Assembly (NCBI GenBank): GCA_963717145.1
Contig: OY970325.1
Location: 1,120,001-1,184,000, forward strand
Length of the DNA: 64,000 bases
From: an uncultured Armatimonadetes bacterium
Lineage (GTDB): Bacteria > Armatimonadota > UBA5829 > DTJY01
Direction: 5' to 3'
This document shows, one piece after another, positions 7,536 through 26,344 of this stretch (position 1 is its first letter; every line of letters begins with the position of its first letter). The notes under the pieces were generated by a model. The model saw nothing but the letters and a program-made list of their open reading frames with translations. It had not been told where the DNA came from and made no database searches. The translations under genes and the position numbers were made by a program.

Positions 7536-7670
7536 GCGAACAGGAGGTACGCCTATCGAATAGAAGGATCGAGCTTCGGCATCCATTTCCCAGATTCGTA
7601 TGATCCCGCGTAATGGCGGGGCGGGGAGCTTGCCCGCATGGTGGCCACCAGAAGGACAAGAACGGTAAGA

Positions 7671-10600
7671 ATGCTCAAGGTAAGACAGGTTGTCTGTACC
7701 GCGATGTTGTTACTCCTGCTGGTTGCATCGGCAGGTTATGCCCAGGAGTTCCGATCCATCGAGATTACGGCATGGGGGTCGGGCTTCGAGAGCGCATCAG
7801 CGTGCACAGCGCTGGTCAACTACGCAGATTCCTGCAATCTCAACTGCATCATCCCTGAACTCAGGCTCAGATGCGACGCGTACTACAATTCCAACTTCGA
7901 ACCCCCCGGCACAGGTGTCGCCCCGTCACCCGCGGGTTTTGACTCTCTGGCCGATCTCATAACCAAGGCCCACGCCGCTGGTATCGAAGTCCACCCCTGG
8001 GTCGTGACTTTCCGCGTCTGGACGACAGTCGACGGACCCGCGCACATGTCTCCGGAGCACATCTGGTATACGCATGGTCCCGGGCAGAGCGATCCGGACG
8101 AGGACTGGCTCATGTACAGCGACACGGGCGCTTGGAGCTACGGCGGCGTGTCCAACCTCGATCCGGGCGTCCCGGCGGTTGAGGACTACCTCATCAGCGT
8201 GTTCATGGATATGGTGAACAACTACGATGTGGACGGCCTCAACCTGGACTACATCCGGTATCCTCAGACGAGTTGGGGCTATAACCCCAAGGCCGTCGCC
8301 AGATTCAACGCCGAGTATGGGTTGAGCGGCAACCCTTCGTCCAGCAATACCACATGGCAGAACTGGCGCAGAGATCAGATCTCCAATCTGGTGAAGCGGC
8401 TGTATCTCGAGATCAAGGCCGTCAAGCCTTGGGTCAAGCTGAGCGCCGACGTATGGAACTCGGCAACCACGGGGAACAACAGCTACTTCCAGAACTGGGA
8501 TCACTGGATGGCGAACCACTGGCTGGACTTCGCGCATCCGATGTCCTACACGTCCACCAACTCCACCTTCAGTGGCTGGTGCGATGCTTATGTAAACAAC
8601 GCGCACGGACGGCACGTATATCCGCTGGTCGATGCCTCAAACAGCATCACCGGGAATGTGCTTCCGCAGATCGACTCCGTGCGAACGCATGACTTCGCCG
8701 GCACCGGGCTCTATGCGTACAGCTCGATCCCGAACAAGTCGGCGCTCCAGAGCGCATTGGTCAGCGGCCCATTCCCGACGGCTGTCGGGATGCCTGACAT
8801 GCCCTGGCTCAGCACCCCCACCCTCGGGATGCTGAAAGGGTATGTTAAGACCGGCGCCGGTGTAGCCATCTATCCTGCGACCGTCACCATCCAGAGCAGG
8901 AACACAAAGAACACCGGCACGGGTTTCTATGGGTTCGTCGACCTGACGACCGGTACATACACCGTTACGGCCAGTGCGCCGGGATACGTCAACGTCAATG
9001 GCCAGGTGACTATCACCGCGGGCCAGGTCGCTACTCTCAACCTGACAATGGGCTCAGACACGACTCCGCCGACGATATCGAACGTGCGGACGGCCAATGT
9101 TCAGGCGACGAATGCCCAGGTCCTCTGGGACACGAATGAGGGCGCGACGAGCCAGGTCGAGTACGGCTTGACCACCGGCTATGGAAACCAGACGACCGAG
9201 AACATGGCGCTCGTTACCGCGCATACCGTCCAACTCGTCAATCTGACGGGGAACACGCTCTATCACTATCGAGTGAAGAGCAGGGACGGCGCGGGCAACC
9301 TGAGGACCTCGAGCGACTACACGTTCACAACCGCGCCAGGTGATACCGTTGCCGATATCATCATCGACAACACATCCGCCACGCTTGTCGGCAGTTGGAC
9401 CACGGGCACATCCGCCACCGACAAGTACGGCACGAACTACTACTACTGCACCACCGCCGCAAGCGAGACCAAGTCGGCACGGTGGACGCCGAACATCATC
9501 ACCGCCGGCAACTACGACGTCTACGTCTGGTATCCCGCGGGATCGAACCGTACCGCCATGGCGCCGTACACCGTGTACTGGAACGGCGGCTCGCAGACCT
9601 ACACCGTCAACCAGAAGGTCAGCGGCGGCGTATGGAACCTCATCGCCGAGACCAAGCCGTTTGCGATCGGCACGGGCGGCTCCGTGAAGCTGGGTAACGG
9701 CACAGGTGAATCGGCGCTGAACGTCATGGCTGACGCCGTCAAGTTCGTCTATCCGCAGGCGGCCGATACCGAAGATCCGACGGTCCCGACGAACCTGAAT
9801 GCCGTCGCGATCTCAGGCACGCAGGTCGATCTCACGTGGACCGCGTCAACCGACAACATAGGGGTCACGGGCTACAAGATCTACCGCGACAGCGTGGAGA
9901 TCGACACGAGCACGACTCCGTCGTATTCCGATACCACCTGCACGTCGATGACGACATACAGCTATCGCGTATCGGCCTACGATGCTGCGAGTAATGAGTC
10001 CGGCCTGAGCACCGCGGACGTCGTGACGACGCCCGACTCAGCGCCGCCTACCGTGCCGACGAATCTCTCGGCAACAGCGATCTCTCAGACTCAGATCAAC
10101 CTGAGCTGGACCGCTTCCACCGATAACGTCGGTGTGACGGGCTACAACGTCTACAGAGACGGCGATTACCTGACCACCGTCGCAGGCGCGAGCTGCTCGG
10201 ACACGAACTGCGTGGCGAATACTCTCTACACCTACCAGGTGACGGCATTCGACGCGGCGGGCAATGAGTCCGGGCTGAGCACGCAGGCGTCGGCTACCAC
10301 GCTGGCCAGCACGGACATAGTGATGGACAACCCGGCCGCCGTGTTTGTCGGAAGCTGGATCGTCGGCACGACGTCCAGCGACAAGTACGGCGCGGACTAT
10401 GAGTTCGCCACGACCGCGGCCACCGAGACGGCGACCGCGACATGGACTCCGAATATCGGTGTCTCCGGGTACTACGTGGTCTACTGCTGGTATCCGCAGG
10501 GTGCGAACCGCTCCTCCGCTGCTCCCTATACCGTGAACTGGAACGGCGGATCGCAGACGGTCAACGTGAACCAGACCACAGGCGGCGGAACGTGGAACAC

Positions 10601-11684
10601 GCTGCTCACCAACAAGCGGTTCCTTTCCGGCACCGGCGGCAGCGTCAAGCTCGGGAACGGCACCGGCGAGGCATCGCTCGTAGTGTTGGCCGATGCGGTG
10701 AGGTTCCTGATGGTGTCGGACGATCTGACTGCTCCCACCGTGCCGACGAACCTGTCGGCGACCGCGGTCTCGACGAGCCAGATCAACCTGACCTGGACCG
10801 CCTCGACTGATAACGTGGCTGTCACCGGCTACCGGATCTTCCGGAACGATGTCGAAGTCGGAACGAGCGCGACCACTTCGTTCTCCGATCCCGGACTGAC
10901 GCAGTACACCACCTACACCTACAAGGTGGCGGCCTATGATGAGATGGGCAACGAGTCGGCCAAGAGTTCGCCGGACTCCGAGACCACCTGGGACGGGCAG
11001 GCGCCGACTGTCCCGACCAATCTCAACGCGACTCCTATCACCAGCACCCGGATAGACCTCACCTGGACCGCCTCGACTGACAATGCAGGCGTGACGGGCT
11101 ACAAGATCTTCCGGAACAGCGGGCAGATCGGGACGTCTCCCACCGCGAGTTACAGCGACACCACATGCTCGCCGAACACAACGTATTCCTACGAAGTGTC
11201 GGCCTATGACGCCAGGGGCAACGAGTCCGCCCACAGTGCGGCTGATGTCGCGACCACGCCTTCCGGCAGCCTGGCGAACATCATCATCGACAACCCGGCC
11301 GCGACGTTCACCGGGACATGGACTACGTCCACCACCGGCACGGATAAGTACGGGACGAACTACAGATGGGCCAGTTCGGCGGTCTCCCAGAGCCGGACCG
11401 CCAAGTGGACGCCGACCATCGCAACTGCCGGAGGGTATGACCTCTACGCATGGTGGTCCGTCGGTTCGAACAGGGCGACGAACTCGCCGTACTTCTGCCA
11501 GTGGAACGGCGGCTCACAGACCGTCAACGTCAACCAGACGATCAACGGCGGCGCGTGGATGAGTCTGCTCACGAACAAGAGCTTCGCGACAGGCACCGCC
11601 GGCTTCATCAGGCTGGGGAACGGCACCGGCTCGACGGGTAAAGTCGTCGTCGCCGACGCCGTGAGGTTCCAACAGGTCAACTAA
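7671..11684 (+). CDS. Secreted GHL10 (DUF187, YddW/DigH-like) glycoside hydrolase with carboxypeptidase-regulatory-like, FN3 and three golvesin/xanthan-lyase-CBD-like domains
   Basis: Signal peptide, FDSLADLITKAHAAGIEVHPW, LDPGVP, NYDVDGLNLDYIRYP and WRRDQI. FN3 motif LTWTASTDNVGVTGY. IIIDN...ADAVRF modules occur three times. Confidence 0.88.
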   Translation: MLKVRQVVCTAMLLLLLVASAGYAQEFRSIEITAWGSGFESASACTALVNYADSCNLNCIIPELRLRCDAYYNSNFEPPGTGVAPSPAGFDSLADLITKAHAAGIEVHPWVVTFRVWTTVDGPAHMSPEHIWYTHGPGQSDPDEDWLMYSDTGAWSYGGVSNLDPGVPAVEDYLISVFMDMVNNYDVDGLNLDYIRYPQTSWGYNPKAVARFNAEYGLSGNPSSSNTTWQNWRRDQISNLVKRLYLEIKAVKPWVKLSADVWNSATTGNNSYFQNWDHWMANHWLDFAHPMSYTSTNSTFSGWCDAYVNNAHGRHVYPLVDASNSITGNVLPQIDSVRTHDFAGTGLYAYSSIPNKSALQSALVSGPFPTAVGMPDMPWLSTPTLGMLKGYVKTGAGVAIYPATVTIQSRNTKNTGTGFYGFVDLTTGTYTVTASAPGYVNVNGQVTITAGQVATLNLTMGSDTTPPTISNVRTANVQATNAQVLWDTNEGATSQVEYGLTTGYGNQTTENMALVTAHTVQLVNLTGNTLYHYRVKSRDGAGNLRTSSDYTFTTAPGDTVADIIIDNTSATLVGSWTTGTSATDKYGTNYYYCTTAASETKSARWTPNIITAGNYDVYVWYPAGSNRTAMAPYTVYWNGGSQTYTVNQKVSGGVWNLIAETKPFAIGTGGSVKLGNGTGESALNVMADAVKFVYPQAADTEDPTVPTNLNAVAISGTQVDLTWTASTDNIGVTGYKIYRDSVEIDTSTTPSYSDTTCTSMTTYSYRVSAYDAASNESGLSTADVVTTPDSAPPTVPTNLSATAISQTQINLSWTASTDNVGVTGYNVYRDGDYLTTVAGASCSDTNCVANTLYTYQVTAFDAAGNESGLSTQASATTLASTDIVMDNPAAVFVGSWIVGTTSSDKYGADYEFATTAATETATATWTPNIGVSGYYVVYCWYPQGANRSSAAPYTVNWNGGSQTVNVNQTTGGGTWNTLLTNKRFLSGTGGSVKLGNGTGEASLVVLADAVRFLMVSDDLTAPTVPTNLSATAVSTSQINLTWTASTDNVAVTGYRIFRNDVEVGTSATTSFSDPGLTQYTTYTYKVAAYDEMGNESAKSSPDSETTWDGQAPTVPTNLNATPITSTRIDLTWTASTDNAGVTGYKIFRNSGQIGTSPTASYSDTTCSPNTTYSYEVSAYDARGNESAHSAADVATTPSGSLANIIIDNPAATFTGTWTTSTTGTDKYGTNYRWASSAVSQSRTAKWTPTIATAGGYDLYAWWSVGSNRATNSPYFCQWNGGSQTVNVNQTINGGAWMSLLTNKSFATGTAGFIRLGNGTGSTGKVVVADAVRFQQVN

Positions 11685-11701
11685 CAGACCGCCGCTTCCC
11701 G

Positions 11702-11738
11702 ATCGTTGGGGATGGAGTTGGACTCCATCCCCAACGAT
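11702..11738. repeat. Short palindromic element; a doubled copy lies inside rlmN
   Basis: ATCGTTGGGGATGGAGT-TGG-ACTCCATCCCCAACGAT. Confidence 0.85.
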
Positions 11739-11745
11739 TAGCGCG

Positions 11746-11779
11746 AAGGGCAGGGGGATCACTCTCCCTGCCCTTTCTT
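11746..11779 (+). terminator. Terminator, AGGGCAGGG/CCCTGCCCT stem (copy 1)
   Basis: AAGGGCAGGG...CCCTGCCCTTTCTT. Confidence 0.7.
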
Positions 11780-11823
11780 CCGAGTAAGTGACTGCACCAC
11801 AAGCGGTTGTTTCCGTCACAAAC

Positions 11824-11942
11824 TCCGGAGAACCCCACCCCGGCCTTCGGCCACCCCTCCCCGCAACGGAGAGGGGACGTGGGCGACTCCCCCTCTCCGT
11901 TGCGGGGAGGGGTGGCCGAAGGCCGGGGTGGGGTTCTCCGGA
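11824..11942. repeat. Long REP-like inverted repeat between convergent genes
   Basis: 53-bp perfect arms at 11824-11876 and 11890-11942, each with internal hairpins. Confidence 0.9.
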
Positions 11943-12031
11943 TCGCGGTTTGGCCATCAAAAGAGAAAAGGGCGGAGACATCATCGTCCCCCGCCCCATT
12001 CTGACTTCTGACTCCTGACTTCCTTCCCCCC

Positions 12032-12688
12032 CTACGCCGCCATATCACCCCGGGCAGCGATCGTCTCCGTACCTGACTGATCGCCGATCTGAGACGCGTC
12101 CGTGCCTCGATACCGCACGAAGTAGGAATAGTCCGTCCCGTCGCCGGTGATCCGGTCGGTGTAGGGCGATGCTTTCTGGAACGCCAGGAGCGAGAACTCG
12201 GTCTCCCCGGCCTTCCTGCGGTAGATGTTGCATCCCGCCGCCCATGCCGGCCTGCTGTTCATCCGCTCATTCGTCGGGTTCGTGCCGAAGTGGATCACCA
12301 CCTTGGCGATCGCGCTCTCCAGGAATATCGCCGGAGTCTCCGGCCCGATGGAATGAGTCGTGGGAGCTGAGCGGACCGGCAGCCCGAGTTCGCCGCGAAT
12401 CTCGTCCGTCATGCCCGGAGCGTGCTGGACGCGCTGAACCAGCGGACGAATAGTGTCCTTCAATGCGCCCTTCTTGTTCTTCTTGTCATTCGACGCCGCG
12501 GTGAACGCGAGCTTCTTGTCGCCATAGCTCGAGTGGGCCGTGTTGAACGCGGTGTAATCGGTCTGCAACGGCACTATGTCCGCCGCATCGAGGCCCAGGT
12601 CCACCAGATGGTCGGTCAGACCCGTGACCAGATTGTAGGTCCAAGATGCGAGTTCCGCATCGTTTGCAGGCACATAATCATTCGCCAT
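12032..12688 (-). CDS. Hypothetical protein: helical N-terminal region plus FN3/Ig-like C-terminal domain
   Basis: ATG 12688 with RBS GGGAGGG. Reads MANDYVPANDAELASW...GCNIYRRKAGETEFSLLAFQKASPYTD...YSYFVRY. The longer ORF to 13072 reads through tandem repeats. Confidence 0.8.
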   Translation of the reverse strand: MANDYVPANDAELASWTYNLVTGLTDHLVDLGLDAADIVPLQTDYTAFNTAHSSYGDKKLAFTAASNDKKNKKGALKDTIRPLVQRVQHAPGMTDEIRGELGLPVRSAPTTHSIGPETPAIFLESAIAKVVIHFGTNPTNERMNSRPAWAAGCNIYRRKAGETEFSLLAFQKASPYTDRITGDGTDYSYFVRYRGTDASQIGDQSGTETIAARGDMAA

Positions 12689-12785
12689 TTCAGTACCCTC
12701 CCGTAGATGGATTTTTGCTCCCTCAAGCGTCGTCGGCATCGTTGCCCGATGGTTTCCTGCGGTCCGGATCCAGAGCTCTGCGCTC

Positions 12786-12911
12786 GCACAAATGTGCTCT
12801 GCATCCGCACAAATGTGCTCTTCATTCGAACAAATGTGCTCTGCATCCGCACAAATGTGCTCTTCATTCGAACAAATGTGCTCTGCATCCGCACAAATGT
12901 GCTCTTCATTC
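12786..12911. repeat. 21-bp tandem array, 6 units alternating with a 42-bp higher-order period
   Basis: GMACAAATGTGCTCTGCATCC alternates with GCACAAATGTGCTCTTCATTC. Confidence 0.95.
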
Positions 12912-13032
12912 GCATGAAGATCCATCGGATCCTGGCTGGAGAGCATGTGATGCCGCTGTGGCCTCAGGGGGATGGGATCGAGATCAGAGTGTGGACTTTC
13001 GAAGTAACACCGAGCGGCTGCCCAGAGGAGGG

Positions 13033-13087
13033 GAATCCGGCATCCGGAATCCGGCAAATCCGCATTCCGCACTCCGCATTCCGCATT
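13033..13087. repeat. Degenerate heptamer repeat (ATTCCGC)n
   Basis: AATCCGC ATTCCGC ACTCCGC ATTCCGC, preceded by ATCCGGC variants. Confidence 0.8.
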
Positions 13088-13322
13088 GGTCTCCCGGGCT
13101 TGCGGCCCGATGGCCCGATCCGTATCCGCCTTCCGCCGATTGACTGCTCAAGGAACGAGTGATTGCCTTACACCCAGATGATTCCACGCATATTGCGGAG
13201 GTTGATACTGTTTTTTTTACCGGGTGTCGGAAAATCGGCGGTGGAGGTGGGATACTCGCCGCCCGAACCGCCCGTGTTGCGCGGCAGCGGGGAGACCAAT
13301 CGCCGAGAAGGAAAACATGTCC

Positions 13323-13351
13323 TTGAACAAATCGGCGACTAGGTATATAAT
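13323..13351 (+). promoter_or_regulatory. Sigma70-type promoter for the STAND gene
   Basis: TTGAAC-17 nt-TATAAT. Confidence 0.55.
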
Positions 13352-13453
13352 CCCTCGTAAGAATCGCGAGTTATCAGAGCCTCGACCGGACCTCGCCGCA
13401 AATGCCCGGATTCATCCTGCCGTCGAAGATGCGGCGTTCATGGGGGGACGCAC

Positions 13454-16400
13454 ATGGCTGACCTGGAAGCATATCTACAAGAGAAGAGCCCAGACCTGCA
13501 CAAGAAGTACATCGAGATAACTGAGGCGTGCAAGAAGCTCTGGGGCAATACCAAGCTCGATTGGTTTACTGACCATACCCCAACCCACTCCGCCAGGTTA
13601 GTGCGATACCTGAACCAGATGCTCGCCCCGATAGAGCAGACCGACCGCTTCCTGACCCCTGATGAGTGCTTCGTTCTGTTATCGAGCTGCTATCTGCACG
13701 ACATCGGTATGCAGGACATGAGGAGGACGGGAAAGACCGAGGAGAAGTTGAGCGATGAGGAGTTCCGTCGCATACGGGATGAGCACGCACAGAGAAGCTT
13801 CGATATGATCAAAGAAGGGACTCTGCGCCCGGACGGTATCAACTCTGTGGATATCAGGTTGGAAGGTCAGGATGCATGGGCCAGGGCAATGGCATGGGTC
13901 AGCAAGGCGCACTCCACACGCTACTACGATGAATCTGTAGAGTACATCACCAGCGATCCACTCATAGTCAGAGGAAATCGGCTGAGAGGTCCATTCCTTT
14001 GCGCTCTGCTCCTATTGGCCGATGAACTTGATCTGACTGACGAACGCGTGGATTTCTCACAGGCAGTTCTGAAAGACTTGTCGCCCGAGACCTTGCTCCA
14101 CTGGTATGTGCATCACTACATTGAACTGGTAGAGATTGTCAACCAGCAGGTCAGTATCACCTACCGCATCCATGAGGAACTAAAGCCGTATGCAGATCTC
14201 CTGAAGGCACATGTTGCAGGTAAGCTGAATGGCCAGTTCCATCGCTGCAGCCCGATCTACCGTGAGGCAGCCGGCATTGGCGGTCTCGAACTTGCGACTG
14301 CGAAGGTGAACATGAGCGAAGGATTCAAGAGACCCATGCCTGCCGAGGTCCTGGAACTGCTCAAGAAGGAGGCCGAGCCGGACGAGAGCGAATCGCCCGA
14401 AGATAATGCGCCCGGTACAGCCATCCGCGTGCGTCCGCCTCAACCCTCCTCCCTGTTCACTGGGCGCGCTGATGAACTGGAAATGCTTGAGGGTCTAGTT
14501 AGCGATCACAGGGTGTCCATGATCACGGGTATCGGCGGAACAGGCAAATCCCAACTCGTAGCCCAGTATGTTGCTGAGCGGACCCACTTCCCATCGGACT
14601 CTGTGTATTGGTTCGATCTCGCATACAAACAGACTGCCGATGATATCGCCATCGCACTCGGCTTCAGCGAGATGCTGAAGAAGGAGAGGATGACGGCACA
14701 GGAAAAGGGCGCCAATCTGGCTGATATCATCGATCGGACCAAGTGCCTGGTGGTGATAGACAACATCCAGGACTGCCAGGATGAAGCCCTTGGTCATACG
14801 ATTCATCAGTCGGTCGACCGCTTGAGTCGGTCTCGCATACTTCTCGTTGGAAAGTCCCGCCCCAAGTTCGTGGTCGTTCTGGAACCAAGACTCGTCATCA
14901 AGCAGATCAACGGACTGAAGGACGACGGCATAGCCTATGCCCGGAAGCTGAGAACCCAGTGGGAGATAGACATCACTGATGCTGAGACGGTGGATATGTG
15001 CCGCGAGGTCGGCAATCATCCTATGGCGATAGAGGTTGCATTCAACGTTCTCCGCTATGAGGAGAAGCCTCGAGACCTCCTGCAGAAGATCGTCGAGTTT
15101 ACCAAGGATAGCGATGATCCAGAAGCTCTTAGCGCTCGCCTGCTTTCCGAACTGCACAGCCATGCTACTAAGCCTCAGCGTGATCTCGCCTACCGACTTT
15201 CCGTGTTCCGCAGGCCTTTCCCCCGGTCAGCAGCCGGATTCGCCGCCGGACGGGAAGATTGGCAAGCAGATTTCAAGGAACTCGTGGACAAATTGATGTT
15301 CAGGAAGGAAGATGACGAGTTCCATATGCATCAGTTGGTCAGGGCGTTCTGTAACGACAAACTCTCAGACACTGCAGGCACCTCTGCTCATGTTGGAGCC
15401 GCTGCCTTCTACAAGTCCCTGCGCGGGAACGGAGCCAACATCGCCTTCGAACACGAGATAGTCCACCACTTGCTACGCGGCGGCAGTCGCGACGAGGCCG
15501 TGGACATCTTGGTTAGTCACGGGAGAGATTTCCTGATCTGGGGGCACACATCTGCATTGCTGGACATGCTTGCCGAGGTAGACAATCGCGGGGGGCTAAC
15601 TGACAGGCTGCTGAACCTCAGAGGTCGACTTTACGAGTCGCTTGCACAATACGACCTGGCAATGGTTGATCTAGATGCCGCGCGTTTATCCCCTGATCCG
15701 GAGTGTCGCGCCGAGGCTCTGTATAGAAAAGGGGCGATCTGGCTTGCGCGATGTGATCTGCAGAAGGCTGAGGGACTGCTGGAGGCCAGTCTCTCCATCG
15801 CGCAGGAGCATCACATCCCTCGGCTGATTGCTTACAACACGGATGCTTTCGGTCGCATGGCTGAAGGTCAGGGCCGTCTTCATGATGCTATGGCTCGGTT
15901 CCAAAGCGCATATGCCATTCTACAGAATGTGCCTCAGAGAGACGAACACGATATTGGCGTAGCCATAAGGAATATTGGAGCTGTATTACATGGCCAAGGA
16001 GACCTGAAACGAGCGATGGAGAAGTACGAGGAGAGCCTCCAGATACGTATCGCTGTCGGCGACCAGTTGGGCATCGGCTCTTGTGTGCACGACATAGGCA
16101 GCATACTTCAAGATCAGGGAAACCTAGATGGCGCAATGGCGAAGTACGAGGAGAGCCTCCAGATACGTATCACTGTCGGCGACCAGTCCGGCATCGCAGG
16201 CTGTACCAGGGCCGTGGGCACTATACTCGAAGCCAAGGCAGACCTAGAAGGCGCGATGGCGAAGTACGAAGAGAGCGTAGCGATATACTCTGCTATCGGC
16301 GAGCAGAGCGGTATCGGAGCCGGTATATGTAGCATAGGTCGTGTACTGCAGAGGCGCGGGGACCTGCAAGGAGCGATGGCTAGGTACGAACAAAGCGTGG

Positions 16401-16912
16401 CGATATATACTGCTATGGGCAACACCTTGAATGTCGCCCGTAGTCTTAACAACATGGCAACTGTCCACGACAAACTGAATGAACCTGGGCTGGCTGCAAA
16501 TCGCTTTGCCGAATCGTGCGGTCTGTACCGAGACGCAGGGGCGTTGGGCGATCTTGCATTCACCCTGCGAAATCTGGCTCGATGTTATGAGAATGCTGGC
16601 GAGCACGAGTACGCTATACGTCCATTCCTTGAAGCTGAGGCTCTCTACCGGCGGCTCGAGCGCGAACGGGAGACTGAAGAAACTGCCAACGAGATATGCC
16701 GGGCAAGACAGAGCATCGGCTTCCAAGAGTTTCGGCGGCTAGCGGAGGCAGCGTACGGCGTGCTCCCTGATGACCTGAAACCGTTCTCACACTACCACGA
16801 GTATATTGCGGACACCACCCTGCGAAAGGAGACAAGGGCTGGTCGAAATGATCCATGTCCGTGCGGCAGCGGGAAGAAGTACAAGAGGTGCTGCTTGGGG
16901 AAAGACGCATAG
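13454..16912 (+). CDS. HD (HD-CE-like) phosphohydrolase - STAND/NB-ARC-like ATPase - winged helix - TPR repeats - SEC-C motif
   Basis: HD motifs FTDHTPTHS, YLHDIGM, EHAQRS, LADELD and HWYVH. STAND motifs FTGRADEL, GIGGTGKS, LVVIDN, GNHPMAI and MHQLVR. 40-aa TPRs. C-terminal GRNDPCPCGSGKKYKRCC. Confidence 0.88.
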   Translation: MADLEAYLQEKSPDLHKKYIEITEACKKLWGNTKLDWFTDHTPTHSARLVRYLNQMLAPIEQTDRFLTPDECFVLLSSCYLHDIGMQDMRRTGKTEEKLSDEEFRRIRDEHAQRSFDMIKEGTLRPDGINSVDIRLEGQDAWARAMAWVSKAHSTRYYDESVEYITSDPLIVRGNRLRGPFLCALLLLADELDLTDERVDFSQAVLKDLSPETLLHWYVHHYIELVEIVNQQVSITYRIHEELKPYADLLKAHVAGKLNGQFHRCSPIYREAAGIGGLELATAKVNMSEGFKRPMPAEVLELLKKEAEPDESESPEDNAPGTAIRVRPPQPSSLFTGRADELEMLEGLVSDHRVSMITGIGGTGKSQLVAQYVAERTHFPSDSVYWFDLAYKQTADDIAIALGFSEMLKKERMTAQEKGANLADIIDRTKCLVVIDNIQDCQDEALGHTIHQSVDRLSRSRILLVGKSRPKFVVVLEPRLVIKQINGLKDDGIAYARKLRTQWEIDITDAETVDMCREVGNHPMAIEVAFNVLRYEEKPRDLLQKIVEFTKDSDDPEALSARLLSELHSHATKPQRDLAYRLSVFRRPFPRSAAGFAAGREDWQADFKELVDKLMFRKEDDEFHMHQLVRAFCNDKLSDTAGTSAHVGAAAFYKSLRGNGANIAFEHEIVHHLLRGGSRDEAVDILVSHGRDFLIWGHTSALLDMLAEVDNRGGLTDRLLNLRGRLYESLAQYDLAMVDLDAARLSPDPECRAEALYRKGAIWLARCDLQKAEGLLEASLSIAQEHHIPRLIAYNTDAFGRMAEGQGRLHDAMARFQSAYAILQNVPQRDEHDIGVAIRNIGAVLHGQGDLKRAMEKYEESLQIRIAVGDQLGIGSCVHDIGSILQDQGNLDGAMAKYEESLQIRITVGDQSGIAGCTRAVGTILEAKADLEGAMAKYEESVAIYSAIGEQSGIGAGICSIGRVLQRRGDLQGAMARYEQSVAIYTAMGNTLNVARSLNNMATVHDKLNEPGLAANRFAESCGLYRDAGALGDLAFTLRNLARCYENAGEHEYAIRPFLEAEALYRRLERERETEETANEICRARQSIGFQEFRRLAEAAYGVLPDDLKPFSHYHEYIADTTLRKETRAGRNDPCPCGSGKKYKRCCLGKDA

Positions 16913-16981
16913 GCGTGTGGTTCACTTCCCCTTCCCCAACCTGATCATCCAGATAGAACATAAGGACACGGGCGCTCCGGT

Positions 16982-19951
16982 CTAGTTCACTTCCGCGAGG
17001 ACCGGGGTGAGCGGAAGAAGGGTGGTGACCTTCTCACGCCCGCCGAGGCTCAGGAGGTCATGGGCCTCGATCTCGATGCCGGCGCGAAGGAGCTTGACAT
17101 CATATGGCTTGCCGCGCAGGTTCACGATATTGATGACCGTCCGACCGCCGACCTTGACCGGAAGCCATTCGACGCCCCAGATCGGTTCGCCGGTCTTTGC
17201 ATCGACGAGCGAATATGCCGATGAGATGGCCGCGAGGTCGAGTTCCTTGCGGAGAGCCGGCCAGATGACCTTCTCCGGGTCACCGTCCGGAATGCGGAGT
17301 GCGGAATGCGGATTGCGGAATGCGGAATCCGGAGTGGCGAGTGCGGAATGCGGACTGAGGAGGTCTTCGATCGCCTGCGGATCGCGCTTCTTGCCATACT
17401 CGTTTCGGGTGAAGCACTCATTCATGAAAAGCAGCCGCGTCGACAGAAGGCTGCGGATCGCCTGGAATGCCGCATCGGTGATCGTCTCGGCCTCGGGGAC
17501 GATGATCATCCTGTAGTCCGCGCCCTTGCCCGCCGCGAGCTGCTTCTCTGAGATGAAGTCGATCTTCACGCCGCAGGAGTTGAGCGCCTGGTAGGCCCGC
17601 ATTGCCGCGTCGGTATGCTGACCGTGACGGATGACCGACGACATCGAGTAGAGGATTGCGACACGAGCCCTCGCGGTCTCGAGCGCGGTCACCTCCTCGG
17701 CGAACCGGTTCAGATCGAGGCACGTCGTCCCGACCGCCTGCGCACATGCCGGTCGGTCGAGGATATTGCCGAGGAATCCCCACTTGTTGTCGTAGTCGCG
17801 CTCCCAGACCCAGATCGTCGTCGCGCCCTGGCCGTGGATCGCTCCCTGCCAGAGGGCGGTGCGGAAATGCTCTGCGGGTATGTAGTACTGCGAGCCGTCG
17901 GGGCTGATGTGGTTCTCGGAGTTGAAGACCGGCTTCCGCGCGAACGACCGCTGGAGGTCGTAGGACGTATTCAGCATCCACGGGTCCATCGGCCAGTCGG
18001 GATTGCCGGTCGGGAAGCTGTAGCAGTCGTTGCCGTTGATCTCCAGCAGGTTGCCGAACAACTCCTGGTCGGTGTTGAAGCCCACCTGGCCGGCGTTCAT
18101 CGCATTCGACATCACCTTGGCATGCGTCGGGACGTTCGGGGCAAGCTGATGGATGATGTCGGCCATCCACTTGTGCCAGCCGGCGAACCGCTGCTGGTTG
18201 AAGAACGTCCAATCGCAGGCCTGGGCGTCACCGCTGTAGGGCACGTCATCGAAGGAAGCATAAGGCGTCCCGTAGCGGAAATTGAGGGTGCCGATATGGC
18301 CATGGACGCGCTTGAGATAGTCGACCCACAGTCCCTTTGTGTTGTCACAGTTCACGGTGTCGATGAGCAGCGGCTCATTGGTGAGACAGAAGCTGTGGAG
18401 CGCGGGCTTATCCTTGAGAAGCGGAACGGCAACACGGAGGAACTGCTCGATCACCTGCTTCGCCGCCGGATCATCGACACAGAAGCCAAGCCACCCTCCC
18501 CCACCCTTGCCGAGATGCGGCCACTTGTTCATCGCCCACGCCGGGAAGTAGTGCGGGGAGAGCAGGACGTTGACCATGATGTTGTGCTTCGCCGCGTTGT
18601 CGAGCACCTTGGCGACATTCTTCAGGGCGGTCAGGTCCACCTTGTCCTCGGTCGGGAAGGTGATGCTCGGCCCGACTTCGATCTGGATGATATTCACCCC
18701 ATAGCTCGGGAATCGAGGGATATCCTCGCGCACCTGGCCGAAATGCCCGAGTCCGCAGAAGAAGACCGGTCCGACATCCTTCCGGCCCTTGGAGTCCACC
18801 CGGTCGCCGATGAAGCTGAGGCCCTCGATCGAGACATTGCCGGTCCGGAAGCGCTTGGTGACCGGTTCCAGAGTCGGGTCCTGCAGGTACGCCTTCATCA
18901 GCGCGATGCCGTCGTCGAGCGACCGATTGAAGTCGCCGATGGCCCACTTCGCGCGGTACTCGAGCCCGTGCCGGACGTCATCGCGGGCGTATGGGATGAA
19001 CTGCTCGAGCATCACCTTCGCTGCCGACGGGTAGTCGAGGTTGATGCCCTTCGCCTTGCACTGCGCATAGAGGGCGTCGAACTCCTTCTTGCGCGCCTCG
19101 ACGCCGTCGATCTCCTTGAGGACCGGCGAGTCGATGACTTCGGTGGTCACGCTCCCCTGGGCGAGGACGACTCCCCCGGTGTCGAGCACTCGGACGCGCA
19201 GGGTGTAGTCGCCAAAGGGCAGGTTGCCGACCTTCCACTCCCAGTCGATCTGGTTCTCGCCGGGCCTGACAGGACTGCGCTTCTCCGCGATCTTCCGTTC
19301 GCCGTACATGACGGTGGACTCGACGGTGGCGGCCTTCTTCGACGATGTCGTCAGGAAGACGCAGACGGGGACGGAGACCCCCTGCCCGATCACCTTCGGC
19401 TCGGTGAGTATCATGCCGTCGATGCCGTCGGCCTGCAGGCGGCCTCCGAGGGGCCGGAGAGAGACATCATCGACCGCGAGGGCCTGGCACTTGTTGGCGA
19501 TGTTGATCCCGAGGTTGATCGAGTACTGGCCGTGCTTGGTGGTGAACTCGATCGAGACCTTCTGCCAGTCGAACGTACCGGTCGGGAAGTTCAGGGTGTA
19601 GCTGTTCCAGTCGGTCATGTGGAATCCGCCCGGTTGGGTGCTCACCTCTTCCCCACGGACCCAGCAGCTCAGCTCGTACCTGGCGTTCGGCACGACGTTC
19701 GCGGTGGCATTGAACCTGCCGTAGACGTGCGGCGCCTGGCCGGACTCGTTGCTGAAGACGACGCATCGCTTGCCCGAGTGAGGGTCGGTCGTATCGATTA
19801 CGTAGGAAGCCCTGGCGGCGTTCATCGTCTGCCAACTCCAGCCGAGCGGTTCCTTCTCGAATCCGGGATCGGCGATCGTGGGAATGAGCACCGATGCACC
19901 GGCCATCGTGCAAAGTGCTGGGATTATGAGCGCAATCAGGATCAGCTTCAT
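16982..19951 (-). CDS. Secreted GH42-like beta-galactosidase family protein with an N-terminal CBM-like domain
   Basis: Signal peptide MKLILIALIIP with RBS GAGGA. Motifs PHYFPAW, LTNEP, PVFNSENH and a trimerisation-like VAILYS region. Confidence 0.75.
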   Translation of the reverse strand: MKLILIALIIPALCTMAGASVLIPTIADPGFEKEPLGWSWQTMNAARASYVIDTTDPHSGKRCVVFSNESGQAPHVYGRFNATANVVPNARYELSCWVRGEEVSTQPGGFHMTDWNSYTLNFPTGTFDWQKVSIEFTTKHGQYSINLGINIANKCQALAVDDVSLRPLGGRLQADGIDGMILTEPKVIGQGVSVPVCVFLTTSSKKAATVESTVMYGERKIAEKRSPVRPGENQIDWEWKVGNLPFGDYTLRVRVLDTGGVVLAQGSVTTEVIDSPVLKEIDGVEARKKEFDALYAQCKAKGINLDYPSAAKVMLEQFIPYARDDVRHGLEYRAKWAIGDFNRSLDDGIALMKAYLQDPTLEPVTKRFRTGNVSIEGLSFIGDRVDSKGRKDVGPVFFCGLGHFGQVREDIPRFPSYGVNIIQIEVGPSITFPTEDKVDLTALKNVAKVLDNAAKHNIMVNVLLSPHYFPAWAMNKWPHLGKGGGGWLGFCVDDPAAKQVIEQFLRVAVPLLKDKPALHSFCLTNEPLLIDTVNCDNTKGLWVDYLKRVHGHIGTLNFRYGTPYASFDDVPYSGDAQACDWTFFNQQRFAGWHKWMADIIHQLAPNVPTHAKVMSNAMNAGQVGFNTDQELFGNLLEINGNDCYSFPTGNPDWPMDPWMLNTSYDLQRSFARKPVFNSENHISPDGSQYYIPAEHFRTALWQGAIHGQGATTIWVWERDYDNKWGFLGNILDRPACAQAVGTTCLDLNRFAEEVTALETARARVAILYSMSSVIRHGQHTDAAMRAYQALNSCGVKIDFISEKQLAAGKGADYRMIIVPEAETITDAAFQAIRSLLSTRLLFMNECFTRNEYGKKRDPQAIEDLLSPHSALATPDSAFRNPHSALRIPDGDPEKVIWPALRKELDLAAISSAYSLVDAKTGEPIWGVEWLPVKVGGRTVINIVNLRGKPYDVKLLRAGIEIEAHDLLSLGGREKVTTLLPLTPVLAEVN

Positions 19952-20058: not shown

Positions 20059-20136
20059 CGGCTGTCATTCTGAGCGAAGAGAAGAATCCGGCTGCAGCAT
20101 GGGCCGGATTCTTCTCTTCGCTCAGAATGACAGCCG
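20059..20136. repeat. TGTCATTCTGAGCG-type palindromic element (copy 1)
   Basis: 34-bp perfect inverted arms; a related copy lies at 49432-49506. Confidence 0.9.
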
Positions 20137-20570: not shown

Positions 20571-23500
20571 ATGAAGTCAGCACGCTCCGTCGTCTGGGCA
20601 ATCGCGCTCGTGACCCTGTTGAGCTTTGTTATCCCGAGCGCGGCTCAGAACACATCCGGTCCGGAAGGGTCCGGCTTACCGGCATTCGCGGCCAGCAACA
20701 CTGAGCCGTGGACCGGACCACTCATGCCGATATTCGAGAAAGCAGCGAAGGCACATGATATCCCGCTGCCATTGCTCCTCACACTCGCAAACTTCGGCAG
20801 CGCATTCGAAAATCGCGGCGACGCTCCAACCATCGAAACCGGCTACGGTGTGATGGCACTCCGCGAGAATGCGGTCCTCAACTCGCTTGCAGAGGGCGCT
20901 GATCTGGCCAAAGCTCCAAAGGCCAAAGTCAAGGTCAACCCGCAGGCGAATATCAACGCCGCGGCGGCGCTCCTGTCGTCGTATGCGAAGAAGATGGGCA
21001 TCGACCGCAGCCAGGGACTTGCCGCCTGGCTCGAACCGATCATCAAGTACGCGGGCCTCGATGAGGAGAACAGCAAGTTCTTCGCATATGAGGTGTTCGA
21101 GAGACTGCTGATCGGCCTGGACGTCAAGAACTCCCGCGGCGAAACCTTCTCGTTCCCGCCGCAGGATATCGGGGCCATCGATATCGGCCCGCTGAGACCT
21201 GCCGATATTCGATTTGCCAACGATGGCTCCGGCGCTCAGTCGTTGGGCACTGACTCCAGTATCGGGGAGGCGCTCTCTGCTCAGTATCCCCCGGCAATCT
21301 GGGATCCGGCGGCGACCTGCAACTACAGTGCCTACTACACGGGCAAGAACACGGTCGTCATCCATACTATCGAGGGTACGGCGGCCGGCTGCAGGTCCTG
21401 GTTCAAGAACTGCAACGCCCAGGTATCCGCTCACTACGTGACATCGGAAGCGGGCGGCGTTTGGCAGTGCGTGGATGAGACTTACAGAGCGTGGCACGTG
21501 GGATGCGCTAACAACTACTGCATCGGCATCGAGAACGAGGGCTATGCCGGCTCTCCAAGCCATCCCGCAAGCCTCTACAACGTCGCAGGACTTCTGACCA
21601 GAGACATCTGCGACAGTTGGGGCATCCAGAAGCAGCACAACGGCTGTCCGCCCGGTGTCCTCGGACACGTGGATATCAACAACTGCGTATGCGGCGGCAC
21701 TCACTGGGATCCAGGCGGTGGCTGGGACTGGGGCTACTTCATGGGAGTCGTGGTAGGCGCTCCGCCTCCTCCGACCTATGCCGCCCACTACGTCGGCCAG
21801 TCGTATCCCGCGACCATGGTCGCCGGATCGACCGCGGTGGCGTGGGCTGAATACATGAACGACGGCACGGCGACCTGGGGTCATGCCGCTACACGACTCG
21901 GCACTCAGGGCCCTCAGGACCGCTGCAGCCCGTTCTACGAGGCCGGCAACTGGATCAACTGTGGCCGCCCGAGTGAAGTCGACCAGAGCGCCGTCTCGAC
22001 CGGCCAGGTCGGGCGGTTCACCTTCGTCATGAGAGCACCGATGACTCCAGGCGCCTATGTGGAGCAGTACCGGCCTCTTCAGGAAGGCGTGACATGGTTC
22101 GGCGGTGACGTCACCTTCTGGATCACAGTTAACGCTTCCACCGGAGGCATCATCGGTACCGTCCGCAACTCGGTAGGCGGCGCAGGCATCTCCGGCGCTA
22201 CGGTCAGTATCGACGGCGGCGGATCGACTACGACTGATGCGAACGGTTACTACTCGTTCAGTGGGCTCAACGCCGGCGGGTACACACTGAATGCCAGCAA
22301 GTCGGGCTTCAATCCGGCAAGCGCCGGGGTTAGCGTGACCGCGGGGTCCAACACGATTCAGGACTTTTCGCTCACACCGACCGATACCCAGGCGCCGACT
22401 GTGCCGACCAACCTGGCGGCCGTTCCGGTCCTGCCGACTCAGATCAACCTGAGCTGGACTGCTTCGACCGACAACGTCGGAGTCACCGGATACAAGGTAT
22501 TCCGAGACGGCAACTTCCTAGGAGCAGTCAGCGGAACCACCTATCCCGACGGCGGCCTTGCGCCGAACACCAGTTACTCATATCGCGTGTCGGCCTACGA
22601 CGCGATCGGCAATGAGTCCGCTCAGTGCGGCGCGGTCGTCGATCTACTCCGCCGAACGAGTACATCATCGACAACACGGGGGCGACGTACACCGGGTCAT
22701 GGTCGACTGCTACCGCTTCCACTGACAAGTACGGCGCCGACTACCGATTCGCCAGCACCGCAGTCAATGAGAGCCGGACTGCGCGCTTCACGCCGAATCT
22801 GCCGAATGGCGGTACGTTCGACATATATGCATGGTGGACGGTCGGAACTAACAGGGCGACCAATTCGCCATACACCGTCTACTACAGCGGCGGCTCGCAG
22901 ACTATCAACGTAAACCAGCAGGTCTCCGGCGGAACGTGGAATCTGCTCTTTACCGGCAAGACCTTCGCCATAGGCACGGGCGGATACCTGAAACTCGGCA
23001 ACGGTACCGGCGCAACCGGCAAGATCGTTGTTGCCGATGCAGGGCGGTTCATCATGACCTCGGTGGATGCAATCCCGCCGAGCGTCCCGACGAATCTCGC
23101 TGGGAACCCAGTGTCGATGACCCAGGTGAATCTGACCTGGACCGAATCGACCGACAACGTCGCAGTGGCCGGTTACAACGTCTACCGCGACATGGTTCTG
23201 ATCGGCTCGACCGCGGGGGTCGCCTACAACGACACGACCTGCGCGCCGGGCACGGCATACAGCTACCAGGTAGCAGCGTATGACACGGCTGGCAACGAGT
23301 CGGCCCTGAGCGCGGCGGCAAACGTGACCACACCGATGGATACTGAGGCGCCGAGTATTCCGATGAACCTCGCCGGAACCGCGATCTCCGAGACCAGGGT
23401 AGACCTGACGTGGACCGCTTCAACCGACAACATCGGAGTGACCGGCTACAAGGTCTTCCGAGACGACGTCCAGATCGGGACGAGCGCAACCACTGCTTAC

Positions 23501-26344
23501 TCGGACACCACTTGCACCATAAACACCACGTACATGTACAAGGTGTCGGCTTATGATGCTATCGGCAACGAGTCCGCAAGGAGCACTGCCGCCGAGGTCA
23601 CGACTCTGGGCAATGACACAGAGGCTCCGACCGTTCCTGCGAACCTCCAGGCGACCGCGGTTTCCGCCACTCAGGTGGATCTGGCATGGGAGGGCTCGAC
23701 GGACAACGTCGGAGTCACCGGTTACAGGATCTTCCGCGACAATGTCGAGATCGCCACAAGCGCCTTGACGACCTATTCCGACACAACCTGCGCCGAGTAT
23801 ACGGCCTACACCTATGAGGTGTCAGCGTACGATGCATCGAGCAACGAGTCGGCAAGGAGCGCGGCTGCCAACGTCACGACACTCGACGTGACGGCTCCCG
23901 GCATCCCGGCCAATCTGGCCGCGACCGCGGTATCCGGCACTCAGGTAGATCTGATCTGGACCGCCTCGACTGACAATGTGGCCGTCACAGGCTACAAGGT
24001 CTTCCGGGACAGCGTTCAGATCGGTACGAGCGCGACGGCTTCGTACTCCGACACGACCTGCTCGCCTGCGACGACCTACACCTACGAGGTCTCGGCCTAC
24101 GACGCAGCCTCGAACGAGTCCGCCAAGAGCGCGCCGGATCAGGCAACCACCCCTGATACTGTCGCTCCGAGCGTTCCGACCAACCTGAATGCAACGGCGG
24201 TCTCGGGCACCCAGGTCGATCTGACCTGGACCGCCTCGACTGACAATGTGGCCGTTACCGGCTACAAGGTCTTCCGCGACAGCGTCCAGATCGGCACGAG
24301 TGCGACTGCTTCGTACTCCGATACGACCTGCTCGCCTGCGACGACCTACACCTATGAGGTATCGGCTTACGACGCAGCGACCAACGAGTTGGCGAAGAGC
24401 GCGCCCGACCAGGCGACGACTCCTGACACGATCGCTCCGACCGTTCCGACGAACCTCGGGACGACTGTGATATCCGGCACTCAGATCGACCTGAGTTGGA
24501 CCGGCTCCACCGATAACGTTGGGGTCACTGGCTACAAGGTCTATCGCAACAGCGTGCAGATAGGAACCAGCGCGACTCCGTCGTACTCGGATACGACCTG
24601 CTCGCCCGCGACTACCTACACCTATGAGGTAGCTGCTTACGACGCAGCCTCGAACGAGTCGGCAAAGAGTGCGCCCGCTCAGGGGACGACTCCCGACACG
24701 ATCGCGCCGAGTGCGCCCACCAACCTGGTGGGAACTCCGATAGCCTCGACTCGGATTGACCTGAGTTGGACTGCATCGAGCGACAACGTGGGAGTGACGG
24801 GATACAAGGTCTTCCGCAACAGCGTGCAAATCGGCACGAGCGGTACGACCAGCTACTCCGATACCACCTGCAGCCCCAACGTAACCTACACCTACGAGGT
24901 GTCGGCCTACGATGCGGCCCAGAACAACTCGGGCCTCAGCAATGCCGTCCAGGTGGCGACGGTGGCCAACACCGACATCATCATGGACAACACGTCGGCA
25001 ACCTACGCAGGCAGTTGGTTCACCGGCACAGCGGCGACCAACAAGTATGGCGCTGACTACCGGTACATCACCACTCAGGCTACTGAGACGGGGACTGCGA
25101 CGTGGACTCCCACAATCGACGTGGCGGGCTACTACAACGTCTACTGTTGGTATCCTCATGGAGGCAATCGGTCCGCGATAGCACCGTACACCATTCAGTG
25201 GGACGGCAGCTCGCAGACCGTTGCGGTCAATCAGCAGATCAACGGCGGCGTATGGGTCGCACTGGTCTCGGCCAAGCGGTTCCAGGCCGGCACAGCCGGT
25301 TACGCCAGAGTGGGCAACGGTACTGGTGAGGTCGCACTAAGCGTGATGGCGGATGCCGTCCGGTTCCTGCTGGTATCGGACGACCTGACTGCTCCGAGCG
25401 TACCGACGGATCTCGCGGCCAACGCCGTTTCGTCGAGTCAGATCGATCTGACCTGGACTGCATCCACCGATAACGTCGGTGTCAGCGGCTACAGGATCTT
25501 CCGTGACAACGTCGAGATAGGAACGAGCGCAACGACCTCCTACTCGAGCACCGGGCTCTCGGGAGGTACTCTCTACACGTACAAGGTGACGGCTTACGAC
25601 GCGATGGGCAATGAATCCGCCCAGAGCGCGCCCGCGAGCGCCACCACCTGGGACGGCATTCCGCCGACGGTTCCGACCGGCGTCGCAGCCTCGGCTGTCG
25701 GTCCCCAGAGGATCAACATCTCCTGGACCGCCTCCACGGATAACGTGGGCGTGACGGGATACAAGGTCTTCAGGAACGGCGGGTATGTTGGTTCCTCGGC
25801 GACCACGAGCTACTCCGACGGCGGCCTCGCACCGAACACGGGATACACCTATACCGTGTCGGCCTACGATGCCGCGACCAATGAGTCCGCTCAAAGCACG
25901 GGCGCGGGTGCGACGACTCCTGGATACCAGGAGACCATCATCGACAACCCGGGCTGCACATGGACCGGCGTGTGGACAACATCGACCTCGGGCACGACAA
26001 AGTACGGTGCGGACTACAAGTACGCCAGTACCGCCGTGAGCGAGGGCAAGACCGCGCGATGGACGCCGACGATTGCCTACGGCGGCAACTACGACATCTA
26101 CGCGTGGTGGACGGCGGGATCCAATAGAGCCACGAACTCCCCGTTCTTCGTGCAATGGAACGGCGGCTCTCAGACTGTCAGCACCAACCAGTCTACCAAC
26201 GGTGGAGCATGGAGAGTGCTGCTGACCGGCAAGAACTTCGCGGCCGGCACTGCCAGCTACCTAAAGCTGGGCAACGGAACAGGCGCTACCGGCAAGGTCG
26301 TTGTTGCCGATGCAGCGCGTTTCGTGCAGGTCAGCGGAGACTGA
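20571..26344 (+). CDS. Secreted N-acetylmuramoyl-L-alanine amidase (Amidase_2) with lysozyme/SLT-like N-domain, Ig-like and carboxypeptidase-regulatory-like domains, about 10 FN3 and 3 golvesin-like domains; one frameshift near 22640
   Basis: Motifs VVIHTIEG, SAHYV, AWHVG, IGIENEG, LGHVD and HWDPG. GYGVMAL...PQANINAAAALL is SLT-like. ORFs 20571-22913 and 22625-26344 join seamlessly. Confidence 0.85.

Follow-up and report, generated by a model that had tools for sequence, protein, structure and literature searches.

In a 64-kb stretch of DNA from an uncultured Armatimonadota bacterium (contig OY970325.1, positions 1,120,001 to 1,184,000; called the window below and numbered from its first letter), we found a gene that probably encodes a single-gene NLR/Avs-like conflict receptor, most likely an antiviral one. 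The gene lies at 13454..16912 on the + strand as a single open reading frame (ORF) of 1152 residues plus stop, and its start is confirmed by homologues whose N-terminus is the same MxDLEAYL. Its product, P0001, consists of an HD-CE head, a STAND NTPase, a TPR sensor and a terminal SEC-C motif. The case for an antiviral role is built on this architecture, on conserved motifs, on family membership and on the swapping of its head for known immune effectors. An earlier note, made from the DNA letters alone, had proposed a defence protein of this kind. All the sequence elements that it named are there, and our analysis partly supports its interpretation; the nucleotide-depleting or signal-degrading activity that it also proposed would be one conceivable output.

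The strongest evidence comes from the proteins that share the P0001 chassis. Using a model of the NTPase, we defined a family of 44 of 266 compared proteins, all scoring at least 244 bits, with the next best at 106 bits. Heads were assigned by Pfam in 38 of 150 listed representatives, chosen for a match over the head or the NTPase, and in five proteins added later. HD-CE is found on 11 chassis proteins, TIR (TIR_2) on eight, SIR2 (SIR2_2) on three, a metallophosphatase and GT4-conflict on two each, and DUF4062, EAD8, EAD11 and CHAT on one each, while no head was detected on the remaining 14. The effector–STAND–TPR architecture noted earlier is real, and its chassis bears known immune heads in close relatives: PADLOC matched the TIR head of P0130 to ThsB (6e-59), the SIR2 head of P0142 to ThsA/LmuA/Dsr1 (2e-20) and the metallophosphatase head of P0145 to PDC-S60 (3e-61) and a CBASS endonuclease effector (9e-31), and DUF4062 has been described as a NADase effector of Avs proteins (bioRxiv 10.64898/2026.09.04.749371). 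In an NTPase tree built by maximum likelihood (48 rows, 200 bootstrap trees), P0001 falls in a clade of seven (88/99), next to a sister clade of 37 (99/99) in which the heads are interleaved. Within the clade of P0001 itself, the DUF4062-headed P0127 is sister to the HD-CE-headed P0006 (100/100). On this tree the HD-CE label requires at least five changes, and a single origin was recovered in 0 of 200 bootstrap trees. Such interleaving of heads on one NTPase–TPR–SEC-C chassis is a signature of Avs/NLR-like conflict receptors.

HD-CE itself is, judged from the architectures in which it occurs, a mobile head. It is N-terminal (residues ~30–280) in all 22 further ORFs that we scanned, where its partners are TPR alone, TPR with AAA_21/AAA_15, NA-iREase1 with NACHT, pentapeptide and WD40 repeats, HEAT repeats, or unknown regions. 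In four family members the head also aligned with positions ~675–957 of the 1036-position PADLOC model for the DRT protein RT_UG24 (E 4e-7 to 8e-9), and therefore the same head is also carried by a defence-associated reverse transcriptase, an enzyme that P0001 lacks.

The head spans 13454..14377 (+; residues 1–308) and is an all-helical HD fold with a small β-sheet. Pfam HD-CE (PF24391) matches residues 36–242 with 84.9 bits (cut-off 27; 1e-23), and the metal ligands that had been read as intact, namely the H, HD and D residues, are indeed so: H41, H82-D83, H111, H153 and D190 are invariant across 18 aligned HD-CE heads. Among 21 heads of varied architectures, no variation was seen at YLHD.GMQ, R108, H111 or H153, with H41, H45 and D190 conserved in at least 90%. 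An extended H..HD..H..H..D signature diagnoses a dinuclear site in the HD superfamily (PMC8177086), which suggests that H41, H82-D83, H111, H153 and D190 form a predicted dinuclear metal site. The phosphatase branch of the superfamily has a conserved Arg three residues before the HD histidine (PMC8177086); this position is C79 in P0001 and Ala in the HD-CE consensus, so the phosphatase-type Arg is absent. On this thin basis, the dinuclear signature and C79 in place of that Arg, a phosphodiesterase seems to us somewhat likelier than a dNTP triphosphohydrolase.

Structure prediction agrees on the fold. An AlphaFold2 (AF2) model of the head alone has a predicted local distance difference test score (pLDDT) of 85.5 and a predicted template modelling score (pTM) of 0.87. 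Foldseek found no match for it in the PDB at E <= 1e-3, and an exhaustive VIA-align search returned HD-fold proteins only, with Z descending from 13.5 to 7.4 and none standing out. The highest Z belonged to the GppA/PPX C-domain (13.5–10), followed by class I phosphodiesterases (~10), HD-GYP (9.4) and the SidE phosphodiesterase (9.0), with PgpH and SpoT/Rel (8.5 each), the Cas10d HD domain (7.5) and the HD dNTPase 2o6i (7.4) lower down. A profile of HD-CE gave nothing significant against PDB sequences (best E 2.2). At the level of the model, the HD fold of the head can be regarded as settled. A second, weak HD-CE match in the same genome, a dGTPase-like protein with HD and HD_assoc_2 domains, is not a relative and was set aside. 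The head is followed by a disordered linker at 14378..14443 (+; residues 309–330), with pLDDT <50 at residues 309–324 and an identity of just 5–32% among the closest relatives.

The STAND NTPase module occupies 14444..15367 (+; residues 331–638) and displays FTGR, Walker A, Walker B, GxP and winged-helix motifs. P-loop families cover residues ~332–476 in Pfam, where AAA_22 scores 30.4 bits (cut-off 27). The ATPase had been called NB-ARC-like, and this holds only loosely: the STAND P-loop is there, but NB-ARC (PF00931) stays under its gathering cut-off of 23.5 bits, with 19.9 for the whole protein and 21.0 for the NTPase segment, as do nSTAND1 and AAA_16 under theirs. In P0001 the motifs are F335–R338, Walker A G359-I-G-G-T-G-K365-S366, Walker B V434–N437 (V-V-I-D436-N), the helical-domain GxP at H522-P523 ('GHPLAI' in relatives) and M625-H626 in the winged helix ('HPLV' in relatives), the last being the MHx motif pointed out earlier. 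Walker A, D436, H522-P523 and H626 are conserved in 15 full-length relatives, and the family as a whole shows FTGR, GxGGxGK[ST], hhhhD[ND], GHPLAI and HPLV. A profile of eight NTPase modules identified one significant solved relative in the PDB, PH0952 (6mfv, E 6.4e-25). This was also the first Foldseek match of the full-length model (E 1e-15, TMt 0.65, 687 columns over NTPase and TPR), followed by MalT and Apaf-1. By its motifs and matches, the P0001 NTPase is a true STAND. The full-length AF2 model, built on 15 relatives (pLDDT 84.7, pTM 0.56), lays the protein out as a helical head with a small sheet (residues 1–308), a disordered linker (309–324), a five-stranded P-loop core (354–484), a helical domain (489–551), a winged helix (556–636), about 12 helix pairs (639–1102) and a low-confidence tail (1123–1152).

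The TPR array, which had been recognized from the letters, is an α-solenoid sensor at 15368..16759 (+; residues 639–1102) whose C-terminal half is made of regular 40-residue (120-nt) repeats. TPR_12 scores 98.9 bits, and TPR families in Pfam cover residues ~714–1070. At the DNA level, four direct 120-nt repeats (family D2) at 15984..16436 (+) correspond to consecutive TPR units, with 63–100% identity to the reference copy. Among the closest relatives, the C-terminal half of the array is the most variable part of the protein, with 20–41% identity and repeat-number indels of 78–80 residues, i.e., one or two repeats; across the same proteins the head is 46–57% identical and the SEC-C tail, at 50–70%, is the best-conserved segment. 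On these alignments, the sensor is the fastest-evolving part.

The SEC-C motif (PF02810) lies at 16844..16897 (+; residues 1131–1148) and scores 37.2 bits (cut-off 20.4), bearing out the terminal SEC-C called earlier. Its four zinc ligands, C1135, C1137, C1146 and C1147, are conserved in 15 relatives. The tail matches NCBIfam models of YecA/YchJ type (1e-10 to 1e-7) as well as SecA and YchJ tail peptides in the PDB, and it displays the same CxCxSGxKxKxCC ligand pattern as the C-terminal metal-binding domain of SecA, YecA and YchJ. Unlike in those proteins, it is attached to an immune-type STAND, not to a translocase or chaperone. In the chassis family a Cys-motif pattern detects the tail in 29 of 44 members, in both main clades, and Pfam (E <= 1e-6) detects it in 19 of the 38 proteins scanned first. 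Elsewhere, Rugutis, an antiphage protein of lactococci, has been described as having a SEC-C motif at its N-terminus (PMC11381338). The genome under study contains the motif twice, at the end of P0001 and at the C-terminus of a 989-residue open frame, which is taken to be SecA from its tail and size. SecB (PF02556) had no match in this 98%-complete single-contig genome, while the control matched in 4 of 14 genomes.

The distribution of the gene is patchy. A word-indexed search returned five full-length relatives, all with HD-CE and SEC-C, at 41–51% identity, one of them from an Armatimonadota metagenome-assembled genome (MAG), and an exhaustive search of 1.84 billion representatives added further relatives at 26–33%. 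The earlier note had named conservation in all relatives as an argument against defence; a search of 40 genomes from the same family or class gave no match over the full length. What did match there were SEC-C tails in SecA-like frames of roughly 1000 residues, TPRs and, weakly, other STANDs, with a single exception, an 84-residue stretch of 64% identity in an 8.2-Mb genome of the same class (G038). There, on contig C1 (L004, 1501–1857), the first ~80 residues of a 118-residue ORF are 64% identical to P0001 and the ORF ends at 'CYLHE', in the HD motif, and therefore is a remnant of an HD-CE gene; an unrelated TPR-like ORF follows. Scanning 185,579 species genomes with one peptide pattern yielded 135 confirmed HD-CE relatives, and we kept 79 of the loci; as the pattern was a single one, these numbers are lower bounds. 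These relatives are scattered over bacterial and archaeal phyla, among others Planctomycetota, Chloroflexota, Nitrospirota, Desulfobacterota-like MAGs, Abditibacterium, Methanosarcinales and Bathyarchaeia. The P0001 NTPase family accompanies HD-CE in 11 of the 79 ORFs and other STAND types in seven, 61 being without such an NTPase, and the complete HD-CE/NTPase/TPR/SEC-C layout occurs in seven. A metagenome scan found HD-CE relatives (79 loci) at up to 39% identity, with the closest relatives, P0002–P0005, not among them. IMG/VR contained one relative.

As had been judged by eye, the gene is lower in GC than its neighbours, with 0.550–0.563 over 13001–17000 compared with 0.63 at 11001–12000 and 17001–18000, and the gene itself is about 5 points under its flanks. 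With its absence from 40 relatives, the remnant in G038, the low GC and the patchy spread, it looks like an accessory gene.

Some of the relatives are altered in the head. One that is otherwise complete (L031, 9962–10891) lacks the N-terminal His region, and in another (L039, 822–1751) a deletion takes out the D190 segment; both may be inactive or decoy forms. In two ANME/Methanosarcinaceae MAGs (L012 and L013), the HD-CE match extends over ~310 residues and the extracted frame ends after 36 codons at an in-frame stop, for which a pseudogene, codon recoding or an error in the assembly could account.

Several observations weigh against an antiviral receptor, most of them concerning genomic context. 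The association with other defence genes that the earlier note would have led us to expect was largely missing: none of the seven neighbouring ORFs in the window matched PADLOC, so there is no defence island there, and in a sample of 16 HD-CE-STAND loci from other genomes (123 neighbour ORFs) convincing defence neighbours were found at just three, which is not clearly above background. These are a complete Wadjet JetABCD directly downstream, with ParE (L014), MNT/HEPN with Uma2 (L018), and BrxD-like with PDC-S01 (L073). Surroundings were housekeeping at 11 of the 16 loci and mobile at two, with IS1595 (L031) or with Rep3 and ParA on a plasmid (L042), and there was no recurrent partner gene. 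We discounted, as no more than generic family matches, the PADLOC matches of neighbours to DpdF (a RecQ-like helicase, L019), mad3 (ABC ATPase), PDC-M51A (radical SAM) and CSD_V (cold-shock domain). HD-CE-headed relatives were not found in 72,556 PLSDB plasmids, where only three weak matches to the NTPase region were seen, and no relatives were found in 50,697 phage records. PADLOC, which the earlier note had recommended, holds no system model for P0001 and matched the TPR, tail and HD fragments only; the Avs models of PADLOC v2 gave no match at E <= 1. For HD-CE, structure and sequence searches turned up no solved or characterised relative, and a literature search found no biochemical or phage data. 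The earlier impression that this combination is without a match among characterised systems agrees both with the missing PADLOC system model and with the literature search, which found no HD-CE with an NTPase or effector. Context therefore neither supports nor excludes a role in defence, and the case rests on head swapping. As a separate observation, a galactose-1-phosphate uridylyltransferase gene adjoins the HD-CE-STAND gene at three of the 16 loci (L016, L081 and L082), two of them in probably related genomes.

Three other explanations have to be weighed against the receptor. The main rival is that P0001 might be an endogenous MalT/AfsR-style STAND switch, in which the TPRs sense a cellular metabolite or protein and the HD head breaks down a messenger molecule (c-di-GMP, c-di-AMP, (p)ppGpp, cNMP or Ap4A). 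The fold of the head, which matches class I phosphodiesterases, HD-GYP, PgpH, SpoT/Rel and the GppA/PPX C-domain, would suit such a switch, and so would the housekeeping setting in the window and at most of the sampled loci. Two further points tell in the same direction. Neither of the nearest solved NTPase relatives, PH0952 and MalT, is known as an immune protein, and distant STAND-TPR relatives have adenylate cyclase, LuxR or SARP heads, which serve signalling and count against immunity. Yet the heads of the closest NTPase relatives (TIR, SIR2, DUF4062/NIR, CBASS-like metallophosphatase, CHAT and EAD) are no signalling outputs, 40 relatives in which one would expect a housekeeping regulator to have persisted were not found to have the gene, and the sensor repeats evolve fastest. 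We consider a signalling switch unlikely.

The tail invites a different alternative, a conflict or stress receptor triggered by a disturbance of translation or secretion that is read by SEC-C, e.g., through ribosome binding. The outcome would be dormancy or death, comparable to kin conflict or to programmed cell death under stress. Binding of SecA-type metal-binding domains to both SecB and ribosomes has been reported (bioRxiv 10.1101/613315), SecB is not detectable in this genome and the only other SEC-C there ends the presumed SecA; moreover, no other segment is as well conserved as the tail, which is widespread on the chassis. However, it is modelled at low confidence (pLDDT <50 in the full-length model) and docks nowhere, which speaks neither for nor against autoinhibition, the usual ligand sensors of this class are TPR arrays, and 15 of the 44 chassis members have no tail, which is therefore dispensable for the core switch. 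Such a trigger seems improbable to us. Decay into an inactive gene without present function is more remote still. Relatives do decay, as the G038 remnant, the loss of the N-terminal His in L031 and the loss of the D190 segment in L039 illustrate, but the ORF of P0001 is intact, all family-conserved catalytic, P-loop and zinc-ligand residues are present, and the AF2 models are confident.

For the antiviral receptor that we favour, a mechanism can be sketched whose trigger, oligomerisation, substrate and phenotype we infer. At rest, the TPR solenoid would keep the STAND NTPase ADP-bound, monomeric and autoinhibited, as in PH0952. When the TPR array binds a foreign ligand, which is probably a protein of the invader, the NTPase would be freed for nucleotide exchange and oligomerisation. 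This would gather the flexibly linked HD-CE heads and switch on a metal-dependent phosphohydrolase, probably a dinuclear phosphodiesterase acting on nucleic acid or a nucleotide-derived molecule, so that the infected cell is stopped by abortive infection. The conserved SEC-C zinc knuckle would be an accessory docking or regulatory element of the chassis. Given a receptor, our tentative first choice for the chemistry of the head is a nucleic-acid phosphodiesterase; a phosphodiesterase of nucleotides or second messengers is possible, a (d)NTP or dinucleotide phosphatase is doubtful, and anything else would be a surprise.

Comparison with known systems places P0001 closest to Avs and other bacterial NLR-like receptors (Avs1–5). 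Like these, it is a single gene that encodes an N-terminal effector, a STAND NTPase and a C-terminal TPR-like sensor, it belongs to a chassis on which many effector heads are exchanged, and its distribution is patchy and transfer-like. According to one preprint, a STAND clade is defence-associated if its members bear defence effector domains or adjoin defence systems (bioRxiv 10.64898/2026.01.04.697583), and most scanned members of the P0001 chassis do bear defence heads. It differs from Avs in having an HD-CE head, for which we found no experimental work, and no Avs structure was among the top 50 Foldseek rows for the full model. By analogy P0001 would work like Avs, yet it fits none of the tested Avs models. 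Its clade may be listed in the supplementary tables of the same preprint. The main texts of that preprint and of PMC7159879 and PMC8195603 contain no mention of SEC-C.

PH0952 of Pyrococcus horikoshii (6mfv), a TPR-sensor STAND ATPase and the closest solved structure, is matched over the nucleotide-binding, helical and winged-helix domains. The match begins at about residue 12 of the PH0952 chain, which therefore has no room for an N-terminal head, and it stops short of the SEC-C tail of P0001. PH0952 is not known to have an immune role.

With the NTP-dependent conflict systems (PMC7159879, PMC8195603), the siblings of P0001 share a domain vocabulary of EAD8, EAD11, GT4-conflict, TIR, SIR2 and CHAT, whereas the P0001 gene stands alone, with no ternary or EAD-mediated partner gene. 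A 'nucleotide phosphodiesterase HD domain' is listed among the potential effector domains of animal TRADD-N proteins (PMC8195603), and an HD domain fused to a bacterial STAND goes unmentioned in the main texts of PMC7159879 and PMC8195603.

The superfamily fold and metal ligands of the head are also those of the Cas3/Cas10 HD nucleases and of dNTPases of dGTPase/SAMHD1 type. Cas3 and Cas10 HD phosphodiesterases are tabulated as dinuclear (PMC8177086), but the Cas10d HD domain and the dNTPase 2o6i are the two weakest structural matches of the head given above. There was no dGTPase model among the PADLOC matches of P0001, and C79 occupies the position of the phosphatase-type Arg described in PMC8177086.

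The P0001 gene is flanked by a divergent upstream neighbour and, across a 70-nt gap, by a convergent downstream neighbour, and therefore is monocistronic. The idea that it has its own promoter stands mainly on this gene order. A σ70-like candidate, TTGAAC-17 nt-TATAAT, is present at 13323..13351 (+), 103 nt 5' of the ATG in a 380-nt divergent intergenic region, but the two promoter-like sites near the gene are not above the shuffled mean of 2.5 (standard deviation 1.8), so the assignment relies on position and not on site frequency. The neighbours encode large proteins that look secreted, of glycoside-hydrolase, Golvesin_C, fn3 and amidase type, with sulfate activation, sulfatase, mannosidase and oxidoreductase genes farther out and no tRNA within the 64-kb window. 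The only conserved flank, a GH42-like gene, has orthologues of 50–57% identity in three relatives, with which no further neighbour is in common. Three large paralogues (7638–11684, 22625–26344 and 27069–31643) each contain three Golvesin_C, fn3 and RGI-lyase-like β domains; one also has GHL10 and one Amidase_3, forming a cluster of cell-surface glycan-active proteins around P0001.

Other features of this region were recorded in their own right. Divergent from the P0001 gene is a 218-residue ORF (12032–12688, −) without Pfam or PADLOC match, which fell only into 'hypothetical / fn3-like' clusters of the protein atlas. It belongs to a lineage-specific multigene family, with 25 matches in its own genome and 13, 5 and 2 in three relatives, and several of the own-genome copies directly adjoin a TCCGCAT heptamer array. 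Upstream of its probable start, within a longer GTG-started frame (12032–13072), is a 42-nt tandem repeat (12784–12914; 3.1 copies, 98% matches, 21-nt sub-period). A perfect, GC-rich 53-nt inverted repeat with a 13-nt spacer (11824–11942) separates this ORF from the GHL10/Golvesin gene, and a second perfect palindrome, of 34 nt, is found at 20059–20136. TCCGCAT arrays at 13034–13104 (+) and 17272–17361 (inverted) bracket the P0001 gene, sharing 27 nt of 100% complementarity 4204 nt apart, and the downstream one is in frame within the GH42-like gene ('PHSALATPDSAFRNPHSALRIP'). We rejected the arrays as ends of a mobile cassette, since roughly 20 genomic sites have this same array (38 pattern matches compared with 0 for a reversed control); they might mark a recombination hot spot.

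Bacterial NLR-like receptors are a fast-growing field in which each further effector head has brought to light another way of stopping a virus. In P0001, an uncharacterised HD head catalogued by Pfam occupies the site that is taken by TIR, SIR2 and NIR NADases in sister proteins, and therefore its chemistry is directly testable. Screens centred on Escherichia coli would miss this family, since it is rare and its hosts are mostly uncultured lineages. Its most unexplained feature is the SEC-C tail, which could point to immune sensing linked with the translation or secretion machinery. As a long shot, the zinc/iron knuckle might tether this immune STAND family to the ribosome or to another partner of SecA-type metal-binding domains, with the TPR array inspecting nascent invader proteins and the HD-CE dinuclear phosphodiesterase providing a new STAND-activated immune chemistry. 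SeAvs7 has been reported to use EF-Tu (bioRxiv 10.64898/2026.01.04.697583), to which such a tether would be a parallel, and, if true, docking of an NLR on the ribosome would position an innate immune sensor in a new manner.

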